Source of the DNA: a virus
Virus record (IMG/VR): IMGVR_UViG_3300045988_086497
Location: 1-45,310 of that record
Strand: one strand, 5' to 3'
Length of the DNA stretch: 45,310 nt
The notes below the pieces were generated by a model, which had not been told where the DNA came from, searched no databases, and was given only the letters and a program-made list of their open reading frames with translations. Within the stretch, counting starts at the first letter, position 1. Each line of letters begins with the position of its first letter. The position numbers and the translations under genes were made by a program. Of the stretch, positions 7,102 through 31,563 are shown one piece after another.

Positions 7102-7106
7102 ATTTT

Positions 7107-7180
7107 GGGGAACATAGCAAAGAGGGGTAATGCGGCAGACTTTTAATCTGCAGGCGCAGGTTCGAATCCTGCTTTCCTCA
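7107..7180 (+). tRNA. tRNA-Lys(UUU)-like gene with weakened D-stem and one acceptor mismatch
   Basis: 74 nt. Acceptor GGGGAAC/TTTCCTC (6 of 7 pairs), D-loop with GGGG, anticodon stem GCAGA/TCTGC with loop CTTTTAA (anticodon TTT), 4-nt variable loop, T-arm GCAGG-TTCGAAT-CCTGC, discriminator A. Confidence 0.55.
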
Positions 7181-7355
7181 TTGACTTGGCTAGTCGTTAA
7201 ACAAGCCAAACAAACATCACTAGCGTGGCTTGTTTAGGTCGTGAATAGAATTACATTCAAGAGAGACTAGAGGGCGTGAGACGTCCGTTCTCGTGGCTCT
7301 ATGAGTGTATTGGAAGTTTGCGAACCATTCAGGACTAGCATGGGAGGAAAAAATA

Positions 7356-23312: not shown

Positions 23313-23506
23313 AACGTTATTTTGAAAAATTAGGAATTAAAGTTTTAAAAACCATGGCACAATCAGCAGTTGGTGTCATTGGAGCTAGCACGTTGATTGC
23401 ACAAGTCGATTGGAGAGTGGTTGTTTCAACTGCTCTGTTATCTGGCTTGGTTTGTATTTTGACAAATCTATCTGATTTGAAGGAGGAAGATGTCGATGAA
23501 AATTAA
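23309..23506 (+). CDS. Holin (two TM helices, acidic C-terminus)
   Basis: 65 aa, two hydrophobic segments, charged tail EEDVDEN, overlaps endolysin start. Confidence 0.65.
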
Positions 23507-24770
23507 ACGAACTCTTGCAAGCTTTGCTTTAGCAGTTGGCTTACTATTACAATCAACAGCTTATGCTGCGGTTGGCGACCAAGGCGTAGACTGGTCTCGC
23601 TATCAAGGTACGAATGGGATTTTTGGATATGCGCATGATAAGTTTGCCATTATCCAAATTGGTGGTGTTAACGGTGGTGGCATGTACGGGCAAACCACGT
23701 ATGAAACACAAGTGGCGTCAGCAATCGCACAAGGTAAACGTGCACATACTTACATCTGGTATCAAGTCGGCGGAAACGCAAGTCTTGGTGAACAAGTGTT
23801 AAACACATTCTTGCCGCAGGTTCAAACACCTAAAGGCTCAATTGTAGCCTTGGATTATGAAAGCGGTGCTAGTGCTGATAAACAAGCAAACACTAACGCT
23901 ATTCTGCATGGCATGCGAATGATTAAGACAGCAGGCTATACACCTATGTATTACAGCTATAAACCATATACAGTAGCTAACGTGTATGTCGACCAAATTA
24001 TTCGTGAGTTTCCGAATTCACTTTGGATGGCTGCTTATCCTAATTATGCGGTAACACCAACGCCAAATTACAATGTGTTCCCATCAATGGACGGTGTAGC
24101 AATTTACCAATTTACGTCAACATATATTGCTGGTGGTCTTGACGGGAATATTGATTTAACTGGTATTACGGACAATGGCTACACGAAACACAATAATCCT
24201 AAATCTGAAACACCAGCGATTAGTCAAGGTCAACAAGCGGACAACACGCCTAAATCTGACATTGCTGTAGGAAATCAAGTTAAAGTTAAATTTAGCGCTA
24301 ACGCATGGGCAACTGGTGAAGCTATTCCAAATTGGGTTAAAGGTCGTACATATGACGTAGCACAAGTGTCTGGCAGTCGTGTATTGTTAGCAGGTATTAA
24401 TTCGTGGATTAATAAAGCAGACGTGGAAATTATCTCAGTTTCATCTGCGCCAATTCAAGCGCCAGCAACTAATACGTACACAGTACGTTCTGGTGACACA
24501 CTTTCCAGCATTGCTGCCAAATTTGGTACAAGCTATCAAGCACTAGCAAGCTTGAATGGGATTGCTAATCCAAACCTTATCTACGTTGGACAAGTATTGC
24601 AAGTGACTGGTTCAGCAAGCACTGGTTCAGTTTACTACACAGTGCGCGCAGGTGATAATCTTTCAAGCATTGCAAGTCGTTACGGTACTAGCTACACATC
24701 AATCGCTAGTCTTAATGGTCTTACCAATCCAAACTTGATTTATGCAGGTCAAACACTTAAAATTAAATAG
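23490..24770 (+). CDS. Endolysin: signal peptide + GH25 muramidase + central domain + two LysM repeats
   Basis: N-terminal [23 protein letters not shown]|A; GH25-type [11 protein letters not shown]; two C-terminal YTVR.GD.LSSIA..(F/Y)GTSY...LNG..NPNLIY.GQ.L repeats. Confidence 0.9.
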
Positions 24771-24781
24771 ACACTTTAACA

Positions 24782-24810
24782 CCCCTAGCTTTTTAGCTAG
24801 GGGCTTTTTT
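24782..24810 (+). terminator. Intrinsic terminator after endolysin
   Basis: CCCCTAGCT-TTTT-AGCTAGGGG followed by TTTTTT. Confidence 0.85.
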
Positions 24811-24821
24811 GTTTGTATATT

Positions 24822-24891
24822 TTTACGGTATAACTATACGTAAATATCGTAAAAACAATAATTTTTTTACGATTTATTACGAAAGTTTACG
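24822..24891. promoter_or_regulatory. Cluster of TTACG/CGTAA motifs forming two inverted repeats (putative operator array)
   Basis: Six TTACG/CGTAA copies in 70 bp; ATCGTAAAAA (24846-55) / TTTTTACGAT (24864-73) is a perfect 10-bp IR. Confidence 0.45.
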
Positions 24892-24920
24892 TACTAAAAG
24901 ATAAAAATGAATAAAAAACG

Positions 24921-24949
24921 TTGCAAGTTATAAAATAATAATGTAAGAT
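24921..24949 (+). promoter_or_regulatory. Sigma-A-type promoter (TTGCAA-17-TAAGAT, TG-extended)
   Basis: Spacing and hexamers read directly; shares the ATGTAAGATA motif with the triplicated cassette promoters. Confidence 0.5.
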
Positions 24950-24954
24950 AGAGA

Positions 24955-25172
24955 TGGTTAAAAGACGATTAAAGTTCATTTCTAACCCAACGTTCTTGTC
25001 TATGCGTTGAATTCGTAGTGATACGAACATATAATTGAAGCACGTTATGTGGCTTGGCAGAGCTTAAAAACTGTTCCTCGGCGATAAGCCTAAAAAGCAC
25101 AATGAGGAGTTAGAGAAGTCGCTTGTCTCTAATCGTTAACCCCGCTGGAGGTTATCCAGCCTTGCTTTTTTT
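24955..25172 (+). ncRNA. Candidate structured RNA / cis-regulatory leader upstream of the PanA gene
   Basis: No ORF; GGTTAA..CGATTA (24955-70) pairs with TAATCGTTAACC (25129-40); TTCGTA-GTGA-TACGAA GNRA hairpin (25011-26); GCTGGA/TCCAGC hairpin plus T7 at 25143-71. Confidence 0.45.
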
Positions 25173-25228
25173 ATAATGCACAATATGACTGAAGACCTTT
25201 CTAAATTATTTAGTTATGGAGTAATACG

Positions 25229-25702
25229 ATGATTGATGTATTAAAAATTGTCAATTGGTTCAAAGTTCGAAATTATTCAGACATGAAAACTAATGATAAT
25301 GTTGAAGCTTTGACTCAATTAAAAGTAATGAAATTGTTGTACTATGCTCAAGGTGTATCGTTAGCCTTATATGATAAATTATTGTTTCCGGAAAAAATTC
25401 TAGCTTGGAAATATGGTCCAGCTATTCAAGAAGTGTATGATGTATACAGAGGATCAAGAGCGATAGTCGATATCACAAGTGATGGGATGAGTGATGAGGA
25501 AATTGGAGATTACCAAGAAGTAAACTCTAATCAAGAAGTAGCACTTATTTTAAATGCAGTTGTTGACGCATACGGCGACATGTCTGCAATAGAATTAATG
25601 AAGCAAACACATGAAGAAGCTCCATGGTTAGAAACAACTCAAAGTCAGGAAATCGATGTTAATCTAATCAAAGATTTTTTTGTTAAAGAAATAGTTGAAT
25701 GA
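25229..25702 (+). CDS. Panacea-domain protein (PanA / DUF4065, SocA-like antitoxin family)
   Basis: LTQLKVMKLLYYAQGVSLALYDKLLFPEKILAWKYGPAIQEVYDVY matches the DUF4065 core signature. Confidence 0.85.
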   Translation: MIDVLKIVNWFKVRNYSDMKTNDNVEALTQLKVMKLLYYAQGVSLALYDKLLFPEKILAWKYGPAIQEVYDVYRGSRAIVDITSDGMSDEEIGDYQEVNSNQEVALILNAVVDAYGDMSAIELMKQTHEEAPWLETTQSQEIDVNLIKDFFVKEIVE

Positions 25703-26121
25703 CAAAAATTAAAAGTAAAAAAGTAAAATCAAGACCAAAAATAAAGTCTAATAAACTTGAAGATTTTAAACCAGAATATGTTCAATTTAATTTTTCATTT
25801 ATTACTAAACACGAGAAATATAATTTAGAAAATAATAATTTAATCCATACGCTTTTACTAGAAAAAATTTATTATTTATCTTCTATGGACTGGGTTCAAG
25901 TGTTGGCTCTTAGGAAGGAGCAAGGAATTGAGACACTTAGCTCCCATGCATTAAAAAGATTCACTATACCCCTTGAATTCAAGGAGAGACGAGATGACTA
26001 TTGCACTGATAAATTTTTCGTGTTTCGCTTAAAAAATCAAGGCAGAGTAATTGGAAAGATGATAGATAAGACATTTTATATACTGGCTATTGATACAACA
26101 TTTGATTTGTATAAACATTAA
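25699..26121 (+). CDS. Putative cognate toxin of PanA (unassigned family; C-terminus loosely RelE/ParE-like)
   Basis: ATGA-coupled to the PanA gene; basic N-terminus; C-terminal FFVFRLKNQGRVIGKMIDKTFYILAIDTTFDLYKH. Confidence 0.5.
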   Translation: MTKIKSKKVKSRPKIKSNKLEDFKPEYVQFNFSFITKHEKYNLENNNLIHTLLLEKIYYLSSMDWVQVLALRKEQGIETLSSHALKRFTIPLEFKERRDDYCTDKFFVFRLKNQGRVIGKMIDKTFYILAIDTTFDLYKH

Positions 26122-26123
26122 CA

Positions 26124-26149
26124 CCCTAGCGCAAGCTAGGGCTTTTTTT
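26124..26149 (+). terminator. Intrinsic terminator after the PanA-partner pair
   Basis: CCCTAGC-GCAA-GCTAGGG followed by TTTTTTT. Confidence 0.85.
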
Positions 26150-26173
26150 AATTTTGTTGACGTCAACAAAATT
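26150..26173. promoter_or_regulatory. 24-bp perfect palindrome AATTTTGTTGAC|GTCAACAAAATT (putative operator)
   Basis: Perfect dyad abutting the terminator and overlapping the -35 of the next promoter. Confidence 0.6.
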
Positions 26174-26200
26174 GGCAGTCATACATGTTTATTGTATAAT
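26172..26200 (+). promoter_or_regulatory. Promoter TTGGCA-17-TATAAT
   Basis: Hexamers and 17-nt spacer read directly. Confidence 0.5.
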
Positions 26201-26203
26201 AGT

Positions 26204-26318
26204 TGCTGTAAGAGTGTAAAGGTCTTACTAGATAGGCAATGAGTGGGCTGGCGAGTACACGTTAAACTAAATACAGCAGGACTTCTTTGCAGGACTAGCT
26301 CACGCTAGTCATTTTTTT
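26204..26318 (+). ncRNA. Candidate small RNA (about 110 nt)
   Basis: No ORF; TGCTGT (26204-09) / ACAGCA (26273-78) closing pairs, GTAAGA/TCTTAC hairpin, terminator GACTAGC-TCAC-GCTAGTC + T7 (26293-26318). Confidence 0.45.
26293..26318 (+). terminator. Intrinsic terminator of the candidate small RNA unit
   Basis: GACTAGC-TCAC-GCTAGTC, one A, then TTTTTTT. Confidence 0.8.
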
Positions 26319-26319
26319 A

Positions 26320-26348
26320 TTGTTTCAAAAGTTAACATATGTTATAAT
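26320..26348 (+). promoter_or_regulatory. Promoter TTGTTT-17-TATAAT with TGn extension
   Basis: TGTTATAAT at 26340-48; -35-like hexamer 17 nt upstream. Confidence 0.55.
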
Positions 26349-26353
26349 ATTAT

Positions 26354-27001
26354 TATCGCAAGTTTAAAACAACTAACTAAATAATTTAGTGAAGATTGTT
26401 TGACAGCATGCTAAAGTTACATGCTTAATAGCTCGTTACGCTAATAGCGGGATACTGTTATTAGATAAGTAATCAATCTTTGATTGTTGCGAAGTGAGAG
26501 AATAGCAAGAGTGCGTGTAGCGTGGAGAATATGTGTAGCTAGGCTAAATCTAAACGGTGGTGGCGATAATAGACGTCTCTGTGAGAAATAACCCTGCAAA
26601 GCCCAAGCTTGACCGCTTGAAGCAAGTAGGGAGCTGTCAAAATAAGCCATTGTGCGCATTGACGAGTGAAAAGCTCGTTGCTTACACTAAAAGATTGTAC
26701 AAGTAGCCCAAAGGCGCAGTCATTGGAATATCTTTATATTGATACATTTAAAAATTTTCTGATACATTTAAAACATATTTCTGAATGTTGGGTGAACGTT
26801 GAAGGTAACCAATCCTGTCTAGTCATTAAACCTCTTAGGAAGTTGTGAGATAGCTCCTCATAGCTCAGACCTAAGACGACTATCAGCTAATAAGTTGCAT
26901 ATATTTGAAGCAGAGCGAAGGCTCATTTAGTTAGTTGTTTTAAATTTGTGATATAATTGTTGTATTAAGGGTCTTGAGCTAGCTTGCGCTAGCTCTTTTT
27001 T
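26354..27001 (+). ncRNA. Candidate large structured ncRNA (about 650 nt; ROOL/GOLLD-like context, family unverified)
   Basis: No RBS-preceded ORF. 29-bp closing helix 26354-82 / 26925-53 (27 Watson-Crick pairs, 2 G-U pairs). Internal hairpins (AGCATG/CATGCT, CAATC/GATTG, GACGAG/CTCGTT, TCTTAGG/CCTAAGA). Strong terminator at 26976-27001. Confidence 0.5.
26976..27001 (+). terminator. Intrinsic terminator of the large RNA unit
   Basis: GAGCTAGC-TTGC-GCTAGCTC followed by TTTTTT. Confidence 0.85.
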
Positions 27002-27019
27002 GTTGCCGCTATAACCACA

Positions 27020-27047
27020 AAAACAAGAAAAGTCCGGTTTAACGGAC
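27020..27047 (-). terminator. Minus-strand terminator-like hairpin
   Basis: GTCCG/CGGAC stem; T-rich tract (TTTTCTTGTTT) follows only on the minus strand. Confidence 0.4.
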
Positions 27048-27087
27048 AAAAAAATTTAAAAAATATCAAAAAAGTTTGAAAAAAGTG

Positions 27088-27116
27088 TTGACATTATATG
27101 CAATATTGTATATAAT
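27088..27116 (+). promoter_or_regulatory. Cassette promoter copy 1 (TTGACA-17-TATAAT)
   Basis: Consensus hexamers; about 80 percent identical to copies 2 and 3 over roughly 50 bp. Confidence 0.7.
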
Positions 27117-27176
27117 ATATATGTAAGGTTGAGGGAGGCAATCTTAGACAAGGAAACTAAAGAAAGGAGAAAAGTT

Positions 27177-27299
27177 ATGAAAAAGCATAAACGCAAACAA
27201 AAGAAAAAAGTTAGCAACGAAACAAAAGTAAATTTGATAATTGCAGTTATCAACTTACTAATCGCATTGCTAACTTTAATCAAAACACTATTTGATTAA
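27177..27299 (+). CDS. 40-aa micro-peptide, basic N-terminus + one TM helix (type I toxin-like)
   Basis: AAAGGAG RBS 8 nt upstream of the ATG; MKKHKRKQKKKVSNETKVNLIIAVINLLIALLTLIKTLFD. Confidence 0.45.
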   Translation: MKKHKRKQKKKVSNETKVNLIIAVINLLIALLTLIKTLFD

Positions 27300-27355
27300 T
27301 CTTATTCATAATGGGAGCGGGGCAAACGCCCCGAACCTATTATGTGTTTATGTTA

Positions 27356-27383
27356 ATTATAACAAAAGGTAGCCAAAATGCAA
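27356..27383 (-). promoter_or_regulatory. Convergent minus-strand promoter (TTGCAT-16-TGtTATAAT) that would give an antisense RNA over the 40-aa ORF
   Basis: Read on the reverse complement of 27356-27383. Confidence 0.45.
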
Positions 27384-27461
27384 GATAAAGACATTAGACG
27401 AATAACTTTGATTTTAATTATTATAACTGTTATCATCCTTATTATTTCTGCAATGTTGTAA
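27378..27461 (+). CDS. 27-aa hydrophobic micro-peptide
   Basis: MQDKDIRRITLILIIITVIILIISAML; weak AAAGG RBS. Confidence 0.35.
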   Translation: MQDKDIRRITLILIIITVIILIISAML

Positions 27462-27468
27462 AAAACTC

Positions 27469-27497
27469 TTGACAATATATATAATATTGTATATAAT
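27469..27497 (+). promoter_or_regulatory. Cassette promoter copy 2 (TTGACA-17-TATAAT)
   Basis: Lies within the 53-bp block 27461-27513, identical to 28409-28461. Confidence 0.7.
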
Positions 27498-27537
27498 AAG
27501 TATGTAAGATAAAAAAAGAACAAAAGAGGTAAATAAA

Positions 27538-27903
27538 ATGATTAAATGGAACGGAAAATCTACAAACGGCACTTGGAAAAAAGAAATTGTTGCAAACGAC
27601 TATGAAAGTTTGCTAGAAGAATTGGTTGATCGTGACATTATCGATGGCTACTGGAACATGGATAGCCAAGCTTTTGACGGACTTTGCGATTGTTCAGAAA
27701 TGCTTGAAAATCTTCGTGATGAGTATAATGAAGCTATCGAAGAAGACGACGATGAAAAAATGGCAAGTTTTGAAAAACAATTCGATGATATTGATTGGCA
27801 CGAAGATGTATTTAGTAAATTGTCTGATGATGATTTTGAATATGTAATTCGTGGTTGCAATAGCCAAGCATACTACCAAGAATTTGAAAAAGTAGAAGAT
27901 TAA
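27538..27903 (+). CDS. Strongly acidic small protein (121 aa)
   Basis: GAGG RBS; 36 D/E vs 11 K/R counted by eye; no TM segment or signal peptide. Confidence 0.7.
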   Translation: MIKWNGKSTNGTWKKEIVANDYESLLEELVDRDIIDGYWNMDSQAFDGLCDCSEMLENLRDEYNEAIEEDDDEKMASFEKQFDDIDWHEDVFSKLSDDDFEYVIRGCNSQAYYQEFEKVED

Positions 27904-27905
27904 TC

Positions 27906-27928
27906 AAGCGGTCGTATTGACCGCTTTT
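27906..27928 (+). terminator. Weak terminator / attenuator hairpin
   Basis: AAGCGGTC / GACCGCTT stem with a short T run. Confidence 0.45.
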
Positions 27929-27947
27929 ATATAAAGGAGAGAATAAC

Positions 27948-28217
27948 ATGGCTTACAACTGGCAACAATTCAAAAACGGACTTTTCGGTTTTTCATACGA
28001 TTATGAAGAACTACTAGCGGATTTAAAAGAAGATATTGCAACTGGTGATGTAGGCGATAAAATCGTAGTCATTCGCTACCGCAGAGATGATACAGACTAC
28101 AGACCAATTCGTGATTATCTATATGAGGGTGAAGCAGTAAGCGAAGATGAAGAATATAGTTTCGAGAACACAGCTGACGTTTTGGAAGAAATGGAAGCAA
28201 TGACAAGGATTTTTTAA
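27948..28217 (+). CDS. Acidic small protein (89 aa)
   Basis: AGGAGAG RBS; 23 D/E vs 9 K/R. Confidence 0.7.
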   Translation: MAYNWQQFKNGLFGFSYDYEELLADLKEDIATGDVGDKIVVIRYRRDDTDYRPIRDYLYEGEAVSEDEEYSFENTADVLEEMEAMTRIF

Positions 28218-28227
28218 GGAGGGGAAA

Positions 28228-28455
28228 ATGGAAGCAAACAGTAAAGACATTGAATGGCTTTTAGAAAACGCAACACAGTACATGATTTCAAAAGAAACGA
28301 ATGTACCGCAATCTAAAATTTCAAGATTAAAAAACGGAAAAATAAAAATGGAAAATTTAACGTTCGAAGTTGCTAGTATTTTAACGGATTTTTCTAAAAA
28401 ACTTCAAAAAAAACTCTTGACAATATATATAATATTGTATATAATAAGTATGTAA
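28228..28455 (+). CDS. Short XRE/Cro-like HTH protein whose 3' end runs into promoter copy 3
   Basis: GGAGGGG RBS; ISKETNVPQSKISRLKNGK HTH; the last ~13 codons are encoded by the repeated promoter block. Confidence 0.6.
   Translation: MEANSKDIEWLLENATQYMISKETNVPQSKISRLKNGKIKMENLTFEVASILTDFSKKLQKKLLTIYIILYIISM
28417..28445 (+). promoter_or_regulatory. Cassette promoter copy 3 (TTGACA-17-TATAAT)
   Basis: Lies within the 53-bp block 28409-28461, identical to 27461-27513. Confidence 0.7.
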
Positions 28456-28485
28456 GATAAAGAAAGACGAAATGAGGTAATTAAA

Positions 28486-28851
28486 ATGTTTGAAACAACT
28501 TTCTTAGTATTTTTTGATAACGGTCATGATTTTTATAATTTAGAAGTAAATGCTTATATTAGCGAAAATCCCGAACTAAGCAACGATGATATAGTAGCTT
28601 TAACGGAAGAATTTGAAAGTGAAGCACGTCATACCATTGGCAGAGGTTATTGTGGTGAATGCATAGGATTCCAAATTGCTGATAGTGTATGGGATTTGCA
28701 AGAAGAAGAAGGAAATGTTTCCTACAATGAAGAAACTTGCGAAATGTATGTTACAAATCCCGATTTTAAATGGCTAGAAATTTCTTGCGGCAAAGATGAC
28801 ATCATAAAAGCTTTTGAAGCACAAGAAGGCAAAGCAGATGATGACGAATAA
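28486..28851 (+). CDS. Strongly acidic small protein (121 aa) with a CGEC motif
   Basis: GAGG RBS; 31 D/E vs 6 K/R. Confidence 0.7.
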   Translation: MFETTFLVFFDNGHDFYNLEVNAYISENPELSNDDIVALTEEFESEARHTIGRGYCGECIGFQIADSVWDLQEEEGNVSYNEETCEMYVTNPDFKWLEISCGKDDIIKAFEAQEGKADDDE

Positions 28852-28873
28852 ATGAATATATGTTATACTATAA

Positions 28874-28899
28874 GTACCTCTTTTCGAGGTACTTTTTTT
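28874..28899 (+). terminator. Intrinsic terminator (first of a tandem pair)
   Basis: GTACCTC-TTTTC-GAGGTAC followed by TTTTTTT. Confidence 0.8.
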
Positions 28900-28912
28900 A
28901 TCTTACAAATTG

Positions 28913-28939
28913 CACCCGATTTTTTCGGGTGTTTTTTTT
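28913..28939 (+). terminator. Intrinsic terminator (second of a tandem pair)
   Basis: CACCCGA-TTTTT-TCGGGTG followed by TTTTTTTT. Confidence 0.8.
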
Positions 28940-28971
28940 GCAAAATAAAAAGCCTTGTCCGTAAAGCTTAA

Positions 28972-29171
28972 GGCGGGGAATTGGCGGGGACGAGTGCGAG
29001 AAAGCGCATGAGTATATAGTTGTTTCAATTATATCATAAAGGAAAGATTTTTAGTATAACTAACTGTACCCTGTTTTAAAGGCGTTTTTAAAGGGTTCTT
29101 AAAAAACAAAAATGATATTTTTTGCTATTTTTGGGTATTTTTTGATTTTGTGGCGGGGACAAAGGTGGGGA
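28972..29171. promoter_or_regulatory. Putative attP region with arm-type integrase binding repeats
   Basis: GGCGGGGA at 28972 and 28983, GGCGGGGA at 29152 and GGTGGGGA at 29164 (pairs spaced 11-12 bp) flank an AT-rich segment with phased T-tracts; abuts the integrase stop codon. Confidence 0.6.
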
Positions 29172-29176
29172 ATTTT

Positions 29177-30337
29177 TTACTTGATTGCACGCAAGAATGA
29201 ATCAGTAACTTCGTTAGCCACCTCATCTTGGATGTGCGTGTATTTCTGCGTCATATAAGCTGTTGAATGCCCCAATGCCACTGCCATGTGTTCAATAGGA
29301 ACGCCCGCAATCTGCCCTTGTGTAGCAAAGAAATGCCTCATCATATGAGGGGTGGCGTGAATATCGCAATTTCTGTTTACTTTTTTAAAGTTTGTAAATA
29401 TACGACTACAAGCGACTGGCTTTCCAGCATCCTTTCGAACTCTCTCACCAGCATCTAAAAAAAGAAAGTCGCTTTTTGAAAGAATCCGACCAGCTTTCTT
29501 AGCAATTTCGTTAGAAGTGTTTATTGCTGTTTTTAATAGTGCGCTAGTTTCTTCATCAACGACTACATAGCGCCTTGACGTTTTGGTTTTCATCCCTTTT
29601 CCGTTTGGTCTGCGATAAGTTCGGCTTTCGTCTAAAAATATTTTAAAACGATTACCTACTAACTCTAAAGAATTGAATTTTACTCCCACAACTTCGCTAC
29701 GTCGAAGCCCAAAATAGGTAAGACGCACCATTACGTAATTGTATTGAGACAATACTTTTTTAGCGCAGTTATCCCATTTTCTAAAATCTTCCAGAGAAAT
29801 TTGTTTGTTCTTTGGTTTGATTTCATTTTCTCCAATGTAGATTTTTAAAATAGGATTCTTATCAAGATAACCATTAACTACAGCATCGTTTATCATCGCT
29901 TCAAAAATGCCATTGGCTTGAACAACACTTGTTCTAGCATACTTTTTCAGCAACTGTGTAATGTGTTCTTCATAGTCAAGTCTTTCAATCTCTTTGAGCC
30001 TGACATTTCCAAAACGTTTTTGAAAACAATGTCTGTACTGTGTATCTTTGTTCGCTATCGTATCTGGCGCCCAACGCCCAGTTTTAATACGATTCTCGCT
30101 GTATATCTGCCAGTAATCATTAACAGTCATATTTTTACGTGGGTCGTAGTCACCAGTTGCAATTTTGTTTTCAATTTCAGCAAGTGCCTGTCTGGCTTCT
30201 GCAACTGTTTTTAAGCCACTAGCGCTCACTTCTGTTTGCTTACCATACAACTTGAATTTTCGGCGAACGTAGTATCGTTTGCCTTTTTTAGTTTCGTATG
30301 TATAAATATTTGGATATTTTGTCTTATTGTATTTCAT
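29177..30337 (-). CDS. int: Tyrosine integrase
   Basis: 386 aa; GLRRSE (Arg), HATPHMMRHFFAT (His-x-x-Arg), LGHSTAYMTQKYTH (His ... Tyr) catalytic motifs. Confidence 0.95.
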   Translation of the reverse strand: MKYNKTKYPNIYTYETKKGKRYYVRRKFKLYGKQTEVSASGLKTVAEARQALAEIENKIATGDYDPRKNMTVNDYWQIYSENRIKTGRWAPDTIANKDTQYRHCFQKRFGNVRLKEIERLDYEEHITQLLKKYARTSVVQANGIFEAMINDAVVNGYLDKNPILKIYIGENEIKPKNKQISLEDFRKWDNCAKKVLSQYNYVMVRLTYFGLRRSEVVGVKFNSLELVGNRFKIFLDESRTYRRPNGKGMKTKTSRRYVVVDEETSALLKTAINTSNEIAKKAGRILSKSDFLFLDAGERVRKDAGKPVACSRIFTNFKKVNRNCDIHATPHMMRHFFATQGQIAGVPIEHMAVALGHSTAYMTQKYTHIQDEVANEVTDSFLRAIK

Positions 30338-30393
30338 TTTTTCTCCTTATTAAAAATTAGCTTCTGGACAAGGCTTTTTTAACTTAGAGAACT

Positions 30394-30422
30394 TTGACAA
30401 TCACCCCTTTCAATGATAAAAT
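30394..30422 (+). promoter_or_regulatory. Promoter TTGACA-17-TAAAAT facing away from int
   Basis: Hexamers and spacer read directly. Confidence 0.55.
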
Positions 30423-30428
30423 GAGTAT

Positions 30429-30520
30429 ATGAAAAGCACTCTTTTACTAGAGTTCTTTTTATATCAAATGCTTACCCTTACACTCAAAGTTTGGCGATGG
30501 AGAGTGTGAGGGATTTTTTT
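30429..30520 (+). ncRNA. Candidate ~90-nt sRNA or leaderless 26-aa micro-peptide transcript
   Basis: Predicted start coincides with ATG 30429 (MKSTLLLEFFLYQMLTLTLKVWRWRV); terminator CCCTTACACTC / GAGTGTGAGGG + T7 at 30475-30520. Confidence 0.4.
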
Positions 30521-30797
30521 ATTTGCTGTTTAATTTTTTTAGTTCATCGATAATTTGTTGGTTTTGATTAATTAAAAGCCAGTTTTGTTCTACTAATGCA
30601 GATAAGTAAGAAAGCTTAGTTTGGTCGACGCCACTATTAAACGAAAGCGCCAGTCCTGCTTTGATAAGTCCATTACCCGCCATTTCATCTGCAATGCGTT
30701 GAACTTGAGCATAACTATCTTGAGATAATCCTTTAACACCACGAGCTTCAAGGTAAGCTTCAGTCTTTTCTTCTTTTGTTTTTCCAAACAATGCCAT
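30519..30797 (-). CDS. Hypothetical soluble protein of the lysogeny module
   Basis: GGAGGA RBS favours the second ATG (30797); between int and the ImmA-like gene, a common site for lysogen-expressed genes. Confidence 0.65.
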   Translation of the reverse strand: MALFGKTKEEKTEAYLEARGVKGLSQDSYAQVQRIADEMAGNGLIKAGLALSFNSGVDQTKLSYLSALVEQNWLLINQNQQIIDELKKLNSK

Positions 30798-30848
30798 ATT
30801 TTCCTCCATATTTTCAGCTTTTGACGTGGTTCAGTTTTGCACGTAATT

Positions 30849-31235
30849 TTAAATAACACTTTGCTGAATTTTTCTAAATTCATCTTGTATCATCGCTTCG
30901 CCCCAAGTCGTGGAAATACCGTATTGTGCAGCGAAGCGAACCCAATTAAAATCGTAAATGTCAGTTGATTTTAAATAATCAACTAGCAGCTCATGAATCA
31001 TAAATCTATCAGCTTGATTTTCATATTGTAAAAGTAATCTCTTGTAATGCTTGGGGTCATGGTTGATATGACCGATTTCATGTAAGATGACTTTTTCACG
31101 TTCTTGTTTAGACAATGATTCGTTAACACATATTCGTCTTAGGTCTGGGAAGTAGAACCCAGACCTTTCCCACATATCAGCAGGAAAAATGAATAATGAT
31201 ATTTTATATTCTTTTAAAAGCTCATCAATCTTCAT
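30849..31235 (-). CDS. immA: ImmA/IrrE-family metallopeptidase (anti-repressor protease)
   Basis: HEIGH zinc motif (VILHEIGHINHD); overlaps and follows the XRE repressor gene. Confidence 0.85.
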   Translation of the reverse strand: MKIDELLKEYKISLFIFPADMWERSGFYFPDLRRICVNESLSKQEREKVILHEIGHINHDPKHYKRLLLQYENQADRFMIHELLVDYLKSTDIYDFNWVRFAAQYGISTTWGEAMIQDEFRKIQQSVI

Positions 31236-31563
31236 CTCCCATTACCTCAATCGAAAGTTTAATAATTTGTTCTATTTTTTTAACGTCATCATCAGATAAT
31301 GGCTTTCCGTCAAACATCACGACTTTTTCACGCAAATTTGAAAGGTCGATTGACGGCTGCCAATCTGGCTTTTTATCAGCGAAACTTTCTGGATTAATTC
31401 CTAGAATATCGCAGATTTTAAAAATAGTTTCTGCTTTCGCATTCATTACACCACGTTCTAAAATAGAACGCATTGTTGTATACGGTATATCATTTTCAAG
31501 GGCAAAAGCCCTGACACTATTATATCTACTTTCGATAAGGCGTTTTAAATCTTTTTCGTCCAT
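31225..31563 (-). CDS. XRE-family phage repressor (CI/ImmR-like)
   Basis: N-terminal HTH (VRAFALENDIPYTTMRSILERG); divergent from the cro-like gene. Confidence 0.85.
   Translation of the reverse strand: MDEKDLKRLIESRYNSVRAFALENDIPYTTMRSILERGVMNAKAETIFKICDILGINPESFADKKPDWQPSIDLSNLREKVVMFDGKPLSDDDVKKIEQIIKLSIEVMGDED

Follow-up and report, generated by a model that had tools for sequence, protein, structure and literature searches.

Do the small genes and the open reading frame (ORF)-free units between the lysin and the integrase of a temperate phage form one defence or anti-defence system, or were they gathered there piece by piece? The question is raised by the IMG/VR virus record IMGVR_UViG_3300045988_086497, of which positions 1 to 45,310 were analysed (this whole stretch of 45,310 nucleotides (nt) is called the window below), and in particular by positions 24771-29176 (4406 nt), here termed the island. 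This island forms the accessory arm of a temperate phage from the Streptococcus bovis/equinus complex. An initial annotation, made from the sequence alone, had divided it into six units and had regarded their combination as an arrangement not described before. We find that the island is probably a mosaic of at least five independently mobile cassettes, nearly all of recognizable kinds: the large RNA ROOL, a Bacilli-1 RNA joined to a PanA toxin-antitoxin (TA) pair, a small RNA (sRNA), a pair of peptides, and a predicted Aca11-regulated anti-CRISPR locus.

The evidence for a mosaic comes from the distribution of the parts. There is no phage record that matches the island over more than 20% of its length. 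PanA, its partner gene and two acidic proteins of the island that we call A and B are all absent from each of 93 ROOL loci taken from IMG/VR; an Aca11-like gene is present at 3 and Bacilli-1 at 2 (both in the same phage), and a consensus promoter with a palindrome lies downstream of ROOL at 4 of 63 loci. On these counts (3/93 and 4/63) we rejected a general link of ROOL to aca11 or to palindromic promoters. Two metagenomic prophages (L055:8740-9360 and L056:8739-9359; related loci are cited by L numbers) run from the lysin through Bacilli-1 and the PanA pair to HicA/HicB and on to host genes, with unit 3 (the sRNA), ROOL and the anti-CRISPR (acr) locus absent. Javan213 and Javan215 lack ROOL and have a palindromic-promoter cassette immediately after unit 3, and in L123 and L138 unit 3 is followed by ROOL, as in the window. 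As some related phages thus have ROOL between a given pair of neighbours and others lack it there, ROOL behaves as an insertable cassette. One further locus (L075:1310-1984, minus strand) contains Bacilli-1, a second terminator and a truncated PanA-like ORF fused in frame to the 3′ half of ROOL (121.7 bits), and is a recombination scar.

That the cassettes are carried separately in related phages argues for a mosaic and not for a single system, and on this distribution we rejected one co-inherited system. The initial annotation had itself named a comparison of genomes in which the units never occur together and each has a known unrelated function as a result that would speak against it, and this is largely what we observe. 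Its anatomy of the island was for the most part right, and modular cassettes in a phage accessory position were borne out; the claim of an undescribed arrangement was wrong, as ROOL and Bacilli-1 are families in Rfam, the gene pair is by sequence a Panacea-type TA module and the predicted acr-aca11 locus is of a published type. The region is thus of an ordinary kind, a phage accessory island, with unusually dense cargo.

Sequence comparisons suggest that a small helix-turn-helix (HTH) gene, three genes for acidic proteins and the repeated palindromic promoters (units 5 and 6) represent an acr-aca11 locus of the published kind (PMC8934645, PMC12282945), with repression by the HTH protein predicted. 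Its features are:

27088-27116, plus strand: promoter copy 1, matching the consensus at 12/12 positions, with a palindrome bearing one mismatch at 27091-27109; drives the micro-peptide unit.
27469-27497, plus strand: promoter copy 2, 12/12, with the perfect palindrome ACAATAT-N5-ATATTGT at 27472-27490, the putative Aca11 operator.
27538-27903, plus strand: acidic protein A, 121 amino acids (aa), anti-CRISPR candidate whose predicted model resembles the AcrIIA15 C-terminal domain in fold.
27906-27926, plus strand: hairpin downstream of protein A that may act as a partial terminator; its T-run is weak.
27948-28217, plus strand: divergent paratox-like protein, 89 aa, net charge −14.
28228-28455, plus strand: Aca11-family HTH repressor, 75 aa (PDB 9lx2).
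28417-28445, plus strand: promoter copy 3, 12/12, with a perfect palindrome at 28420-28438, within the 3′ end of the aca11 ORF.
28486-28851, plus strand: acidic protein B, 121 aa, member of an orphan family and anti-CRISPR candidate by position.

The HTH protein matches Aca11 (PDB 9lx2) over residues 1–64 on both sides with an E value of 2.7e-11, and the N-terminal domain of AcrIIA15 with an E value of 1e-4. It shares 58% sequence identity with the aca11 homologue of Javan128, which precedes a palindromic promoter and AcrIIA28, a validated anti-CRISPR (Song et al. 2022, PMC8934645), and the same aca11 is found at ∼97–98% nucleotide identity in the satellites Javan212, Javan218 and Javan219. 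Aca11 has been shown experimentally to repress the acr promoters on either side of its gene via an inverted repeat located between −35 and −10, a mode termed "bidirectional" (PMC12282945). In the window, the palindromes likewise sit between the −35 and −10 boxes, with one perfect copy upstream of the operon and one inside the aca11 3′ end. They belong to a promoter module of 87 nt that occurs in three copies, in the island only (chance expectation is 0.00 and 0.30 for the two patterns). Of the three Aca11 residues compared, which contact DNA, Tyr-18 and Gln-28 are kept, and the position of Arg-39, essential in the published protein (PMC12282945), is occupied by Ile-39, flanked by Lys-38 and Lys-40. 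Unit 6, which contains aca11 and the three acidic proteins, comprises two transcription units and not four.

The aca11 ORF of the window is 12 codons longer than annotated in Javan218 (75 versus 63 aa; positions 28408-28455), and the additional residues are encoded by promoter copy 3, into which the 3′ end of the ORF extends. Downstream of aca11 (98% nucleotide identity), the satellite Javan218 (L007:3001-4918) has a promoter of the form TTGACA-17-TAAAAT, then a PanA-like gene and its partner of 178 aa, then canonical paratox; the presence of aca11 there makes the Aca11 module common to phages and their satellites. The Javan213 gene after the paratox-like ORF was considered as a further aca11 and rejected, as it shows no similarity. 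In other phages of the S. bovis/equinus complex, consensus promoters at the equivalent position carry other spacer palindromes (CATGGTATTAATACCATGG and TACATGTA; L182, ∼290 nt beyond the ROOL 3′ region, and L004:3778-3806), which suggests a family of cassettes that may have distinct repressor specificities. The spacer of the micro-peptide promoter in Javan616 contains a different palindrome (ACACGGT-N3-ACCGTGT).

The three acidic proteins have net charges of −25 (protein A), −14 (paratox-like protein) and −25 (protein B), in line with the initial annotation, whose DNA-mimic-like reading of them was right. The AlphaFold2 model of protein A has a predicted local distance difference test score (pLDDT) of 92.3, and a Foldseek search with this model among 350,542 PDB chains identified AcrIIA15 as the sole match: the top three entries (8jft_C, 8jfo and 8jfu) have a probability of 1.00, E values of 2e-3 to 2e-2, template-modelling (TM) scores of 0.40–0.57 (best 0.53–0.57) and 17–23% identity, and the next hit has an E value of 0.7. 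Neither the PDB profile search nor Pfam gave a sequence-level match for protein A. The AcrIIA15 C-terminal domain is an acidic mimic of double-stranded DNA and of the protospacer-adjacent motif (PAM), and its fold, a three-stranded sheet plus helices, was reported to be without structural neighbours (PMC10901769).

The paratox-like protein scores 19.9 bits against PF24313, under the cut-off of 27, and matches phrog_2133 with an E value of 2e-4. When its family was aligned with that of paratox using hhalign, we obtained a probability of 92.9% and an E value of 3.7e-7 over paratox residues 5–59 of 61. Paratox (Prx) contacts ComR with the acidic residues Glu-6, Glu-9, Asp-32, Asp/Glu-38 and Glu-44 (PMC8383118), and the equivalents of Asp-32, Glu-38 and Glu-44 (Asp-56, Glu-62 and Glu-68) are invariant in the paratox-like family. 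Protein B belongs to a family with 9 representatives among 1.84 billion proteins and is encoded at the place where Javan128 has AcrIIA28 and Streptococcus sp. F0441 has AcrIIA3 (PMC12282945). We rejected, for lack of similarity, that proteins A and B are paralogues and that the paratox-like protein or protein B is a relative of AcrIIA28; none of the three acidic proteins has sequence similarity to AcrIIA28 or matched a deposited Acr structure by sequence.

The conserved acidic residues of the 89-aa protein also fit another account, in which the acidic proteins would be paratox-like regulators of host physiology that protect the prophage by blocking ComR-dependent competence or other DNA-binding proteins, and the HTH protein would be a small phage regulator of the ordinary sort. 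Paratox has many HTH proteins as binding partners (PMC11754733), and canonical paratox is found at the same prophage-end position in relatives. Yet the HTH protein is specifically Aca11-like and comes with the Aca11 promoter architecture, the model of protein A matches AcrIIA15 alone among the PDB chains, and a validated AcrIIA28 takes the equivalent slot in Javan128 (PMC8934645). We regard this account as unlikely for the locus; for the paratox-like gene alone, it is compatible with the anti-CRISPR reading.

At the other end of the island, an RNA motif leads into a pair of coupled genes (units 1 and 2):

24921-24949, plus strand: probable Bacilli-1 promoter, TTGCAA-17-TAAGAT, read from the sequence and under the scan threshold.
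24956-25172, plus strand: Bacilli-1 RNA unit, with the Rfam core at 25011-25075, two more hairpins, and a terminator at 25144-25160 with a T-run.
25229-25702, plus strand: PanA-type antitoxin with a SocA/Panacea domain, 157 aa (PF13274, 74.5 bits versus a cut-off of 25.7).
25699-26121, plus strand: PanA partner, putative toxin, 140 aa, net charge +10; the start codon and the PanA stop codon overlap in ATGA (25699-25702).
26124-26141, plus strand: PanA operon terminator, CCCTAGC-GCAA-GCTAGGG.

The Bacilli-1 core matches RF02931 with 78.6 bits (gathering score 55.6) over model positions 1–65 of 65, and the transcript expected in the window is ∼215 nt long. We aligned 14 homologues from the S. 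bovis/equinus complex, the mitis group, pyogenic streptococci, S. suis and Gemella. RNAalifold predicts 50 base pairs for this alignment, of which 17 show compensatory changes, including 5/6 pairs in helix P1 and 5/7 pairs in helix P2. The consensus fold consists of two 5′ hairpins, an invariant single-stranded stretch, two further hairpins and the terminator; the fold z-score of the unit is −2.2. A promoter-like site at 25007-25035 (10/12) was rejected as the start of unit 1, as it falls within the covarying helices P1 and P2; in relatives, TTGCAA or TTGACA-17-CATAAT is found at the position of the upstream promoter, 75–90 nt upstream of P1. A search for tandem repeats, contrary to what type III antitoxin RNAs would show, found none in the Bacilli-1 unit.

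A scan for the Bacilli-1 core located 51 loci, 3 of them from non-Firmicutes, the number that chance predicts. At ∼35 streptococcal and Gemella loci (within L061-L110; for example L077:3832-4001, L094:3376-3549 and L082:2584-2758, all on the minus strand), the T-run of the Bacilli-1 unit is followed after ∼10–25 nt by a ribosome-binding site and an ORF for a PBECR4 nuclease (PF18813, 169–187 aa). We could see neither a promoter nor a protein antitoxin gene between RNA and ORF at these loci. The same pairing is found in the prophages and satellites Javan155, Javan201, Javan577, phi30c and phiGBSVK-D. In phages of the S. bovis/equinus complex, Bacilli-1 instead lies upstream of PanA and its partner (window, L055-L058 and L073), and in L142 and L188 ROOL directly follows Bacilli-1; the link to toxin genes is not absolute. 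A second class of six mitis-group loci (L079, L092, L093, L098, L107 and L110) shares the 65-nt 5′ domain, but its 3′ domain is unrelated and has its own terminator, and no toxin-type ORF lies downstream.

PanA is not a SocA equivalog (NCBIfam NF047745, 49.4 bits versus a cut-off of 190), and together with the coupled partner it confirms the TA-like pair of the initial annotation. Judged from sequence, the pair is a Panacea-type TA module and the partner a putative toxin. The partner matches no Pfam or PADLOC family and no PDB profile, and its own family is spread across Lactobacillales; the two genes are kept together in L055-L058. For the AlphaFold2 model of the partner (pLDDT 85.8), the best Foldseek matches are almost all RelE/YoeB/YafQ/HigB toxins, at weak scores (E 0.1–1, TM 0.5–0.57). 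A relationship to PBECR4 was tried and rejected (hhalign probability 0.3%). Between the unit 1 terminator and the PanA start codon, no promoter-like site reaches the scan threshold, and the sole trace of one, TATAAT at 25172-25177, is without a usable −35 box. As PanA is thus not preceded by a threshold-level promoter, units 1 and 2 are probably one transcription unit, best read as an operon with an RNA leader that ends in a terminator, a layout that recalls type III TA systems.

It is possible, and we propose it tentatively, that Bacilli-1 is not a free-standing sRNA but is encoded in cis as the RNA partner of toxins of the nuclease type, in prophages and satellites of streptococci. It might serve as an RNA antitoxin, or control toxin expression as a conditional terminator; in the window, the Bacilli-1 module would then have recombined onto the PanA and RelE-like pair. 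No paper in the literature collection searched mentions the motif, and its recurrent link to PBECR4 and PanA toxin genes represents the first testable functional hypothesis for this orphan Rfam motif and our most original lead. If true, the series of promoter, Bacilli-1, terminator and PBECR4 RNase would be a new, non-repetitive analogue of type III TA.

The middle of the island contains two more RNA units (units 3 and 4):

26172-26318, plus strand: unit 3, with promoter TTGGCA-17-TATAAT (26172-26200), an ORF-free transcript of ∼110 nt, and terminator 26293-26310.
26320-26348, plus strand: probable ROOL promoter, an extended −10 type with TTGTTT-17-TATAAT preceded by TGT, read from the sequence.
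26361-26943, plus strand: ROOL RNA, full length (RF03087).
26976-26995, plus strand: ROOL terminator, GAGCTAGC-TTGC-GCTAGCTC.

ROOL was identified with 248.6 bits (gathering score 99.1, E 1.4e-55) over model positions 1–574 of 574. ROOL RNAs are a known class of large RNAs from phages and prophages, without an assigned function (Weinberg 2017, PMC5737381; Kretsch 2025, PMC12286853), and other members of this class form homo-oligomeric RNA-only nanocages, as seen by cryo-EM (PMC12286853). Copies with 86–89% identity are located right after the lysin in the S. equinus phages Bsingle, PY1-9, 36L and Javan207, and similarity to other ROOL phages starts at window position 26339. The only tRNA gene of the window, tRNA-Lys (UUU) at 7106-7181 in the left arm, lies 19 kb from ROOL, so that this copy is not part of a tRNA island, unlike many described ones.

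Javan213 and Javan215 have unit 3, a candidate sRNA, immediately behind the lysin genes, and its conservation extends from the −10 box as far as the terminator; no ORF is conserved in it, and it folds no better than shuffled sequences (z −0.93). We rejected that unit 3 or Bacilli-1 is a viral single-guide RNA, a trans-activating CRISPR RNA (tracrRNA) or a repeat-derived RNA, as neither Rfam nor alignment supports this: tracrRNA families of Rfam gave no match at E values up to 1 across the island and up to 10 for unit 3, and alignment to the St1, St3 and Spy repeats and the St1 and Spy tracrRNAs, the references used, was no better than for shuffles.

Between ROOL and protein A lies the micro-peptide unit (unit 5), driven by promoter copy 1:

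27177-27299, plus strand: micro-peptide 1, 40 aa, with a basic N terminus, one hydrophobic helix and a strong ribosome-binding site.
27318-27333, plus strand: G-C hairpin between the two ORFs, without a T-run, kept in Javan291 and Javan616.
27378-27461, plus strand: micro-peptide 2, 27 aa, hydrophobic; its start region ATGCAAGATAAA is kept in relatives.

We propose that the two are small membrane peptides. In Javan291 (L111:2470-2800) and Javan616 (L112:2470-2800), the whole unit adjoins a divergent CI-like repressor gene, the 5′ untranslated region of ∼40 nt is invariant and the peptide pattern is kept; in L057, a gene has been called at the position of micro-peptide 1. A tblastn search with peptide 1 found nothing, for which the low-complexity filter is the probable reason. 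The initial annotation had placed a convergent promoter here, a claim that we could not uphold: the minus strand matches are 9/12 only, and as a near-palindromic plus strand promoter reads alike on the minus strand, they are mirror images of the palindromic promoters. With these as the sole minus strand matches, a type I TA module with a convergent antisense promoter was rejected; no minus strand terminator is found near the unit.

We also considered that the island serves mainly to defend the lysogen, the PanA pair causing abortive infection, the peptides superinfection exclusion, and ROOL acting as a defence RNA. Its position and orientation are, by established knowledge, typical of prophage-expressed genes, TA pairs and small membrane proteins at such positions often exclude other phages, and the repressor gene beside the micro-peptide unit in Javan291 and Javan616 would suit this role. 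But the PADLOC defence models match none of the 8 island proteins, the largest protein-coding block is the acr-aca locus and thus points to counter-defence, and ROOL is also located directly after the lysin in S. equinus phages, for instance Bsingle, with no integrase among the neighbouring genes. We find lysogen defence as the main purpose rather doubtful. In a few phages of the S. bovis/equinus complex, unit 3 and ROOL lie just upstream of the anti-CRISPR promoters; that they act as RNA counter-defence factors appears improbable to us. We consider it very improbable that the six units are one integrated, previously undescribed defence or anti-defence system whose RNAs and proteins act jointly: they are tightly packed and co-oriented in a single accessory region, the order unit 3, ROOL and palindromic-promoter cassette recurs in L123, L138 and L142/L188 (contigs of the S. 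bovis/equinus complex), and RNA-based anti-CRISPRs are known from acr islands (bioRxiv 10.64898/2026.06.01.729453), but the family of each unit is separately distributed, as the ROOL counts given above and the PanA pair found with HicA/HicB elsewhere illustrate.

Several points weigh against our assignments within the mosaic. The likeness of protein A to AcrIIA15 (E 2e-3, TM ∼0.55, 17–23% identity) is structural only and depends on a predicted model. The paratox-like protein is below the Pfam threshold, and the equivalents of Prx Glu-6 and Glu-9 (positions 25 and 28) vary in its family. The position of the essential Aca11 Arg-39 is an isoleucine, and the RelE-like fold match of the PanA partner is not significant by E value. 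Protein B (no family or PDB match), unit 3 (no Rfam family) and the micro-peptides (no family) are without positive identification.

Promoters and terminators delimit the cassettes. Over positions 23500-31500 we count 15 terminator-like sites (4.9 ± 2.2 in shuffled sequences) and 46 promoter-like sites (28.7 ± 4.3 in shuffles). The island has seven plus strand intrinsic terminators (at 24782, 25144, 26124, 26293, 26976, 28872 and 28912), promoters matching the consensus at 12/12 positions at 27088, 27469 and 28417, and an 11/12 promoter at 26172. The initial annotation had assigned each unit a promoter and a terminator of its own, which agrees with these terminators and consensus promoters and fails at unit 2, where no promoter reaches the threshold. 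The outermost terminators are:

24782-24803, plus strand: endolysin terminator and left boundary of the island, a CTAGC..GCTAG-family hairpin in variant form, with a T-run and a 9-bp stem that includes 6 G-C pairs.
28872-28894 and 28912-28932, plus strand: tandem terminators marking the right end of the island, ahead of the putative att region and the integrase.

The exact hairpin core CTAGC-N4-GCTAG is common to three terminators (26126-26139, 26295-26308 and 26979-26992; 0.02 are expected in shuffles), and the lysin terminator has a close variant of it at 24785-24800. In addition, a 17-nt repeat (24768-24784 and 26110-26126) is located just 5′ of two terminators. The common cores and the repeat are plausible recombination joints at cassette boundaries.

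The window looks like a complete, circularly permuted genome of a temperate siphophage. Structural genes are followed by a 1942-aa tail protein, a holin, an endolysin with GH25 and LysM domains (23490-24770), the island, the integrase (29177-30337) and other lysogeny and early genes. All island units are on the plus strand, and the integrase and adjacent lysogeny genes are on the minus strand, as initially annotated. So is the low coding share: 2330 of 4406 nt (52.9%) are coding, with the ORF inventory as described, and the three ORF-free RNA units make up ∼22% of the island, in keeping with an RNA-rich region. The near nucleotide matches are all phages, prophages and satellites of Streptococcus equinus, infantarius, macedonicus and gallolyticus, and the same phage has also been assembled from run ERR866564 (L054 and L057).

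From these assignments we infer a course of events in which all activities, the terminator read-through and the Cas9 target are to be taken as predictions. Recombination would have assembled the island from separate mobile cassettes, among them the ∼110-nt sRNA, the self-contained ROOL gene and the small membrane peptide pair. At its left end, a promoter would transcribe the structured Bacilli-1 leader up to the intrinsic terminator, read-through would feed PanA and the basic RelE-like toxin, and the terminator would set a high ratio of RNA to toxin transcript. On cell entry, the three near-identical promoters may fire strongly and yield protein A, the paratox-like protein, Aca11 and protein B. 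Protein A could then block Cas9 as a mimic of double-stranded DNA and PAM, like the AcrIIA15 C-terminal domain, and the paratox-like protein could bind DNA-binding domains such as that of ComR with its acidic surface. Aca11 would subsequently bind the palindromes upstream and downstream of its own gene and shut the promoters.

Eight ORFs labelled "hypothetical" in related public records and three unannotated RNA genes are thereby turned into a readable map. What is new in it is limited to the three anti-CRISPR candidates, the sRNA and the peptide pair, ROOL as a cassette, and the linkage of Bacilli-1 with toxins. The candidates are concrete ones for the Cas9 of the S. bovis/equinus complex, include a putative stand-alone relative of the AcrIIA15 DNA-mimic domain, and come with a defined candidate Aca11 operator. 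A paratox relative inside an aca11 operon suggests a link of competence inhibition with anti-CRISPR regulation, and related phages with and without ROOL offer a natural isogenic comparison for this RNA.

Comparison with known systems places each cassette next to a described relative. Like the acr-aca11 loci reported previously (PMC8934645; 2025, PMC12282945), the window has a small HTH gene of the Aca11 family, flanked upstream and downstream by strong sigma-70-type promoters that hold an inverted repeat between −35 and −10, and small acidic genes in the regulated positions, all at a prophage end; it differs in that the acidic proteins are unlike AcrIIA28, an extra promoter copy serves two micro-peptides, and the Arg-39 equivalent is isoleucine. 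With Staphylococcus AcrIIA15 (PMC7104187, PMC10901769) it shares the predicted C-terminal fold in protein A, an HTH protein resembling the N-terminal domain, and an operator between −35 and −10. In the window, however, these are two separate genes with the paratox-like gene between them, protein A being without an HTH and the HTH encoded two ORFs downstream; C-terminal sequence homology is not detectable, and the host is of another genus, so that the Cas9 orthologue is probably another one. The paratox-like protein is small and acidic as paratox is, lies at a prophage end, is related at the profile level and keeps the Asp-32, Glu-38 and Glu-44 equivalents, but has a 23-residue N-terminal extension, a 6-residue insertion and a sub-Pfam score, and resides in an aca11 operon rather than beside a virulence gene.

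As in PanA/PanT type II TA modules, which also occur in prophages, the window has a small basic protein whose translation is coupled to that of a Panacea-domain protein; here, this partner belongs to no named toxin family, and the pair apparently lacks a dedicated promoter and comes after a structured RNA that ends in a terminator. The PBECR4 loci share with the type III TA systems ToxIN, CptIN and TenpIN the order of promoter, structured RNA, intrinsic terminator and nuclease-type gene, whereas Bacilli-1 is not a tandem-repeat array and the window has a protein antitoxin (PanA). The 65-nt core, two covarying hairpins and conserved single-stranded stretch of the Bacilli-1 motif (RF02931) are all present, but the conserved unit extends beyond the Rfam model to ∼165–215 nt, with two extra hairpins and a terminator, directly upstream of toxin-type genes. 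The ROOL copy, finally, shows no structural difference from its class in its full-length covariance-model match, phage context and rumen or gut host; it differs in lying outside a tRNA island, as a stand-alone cassette with its own promoter and terminator.

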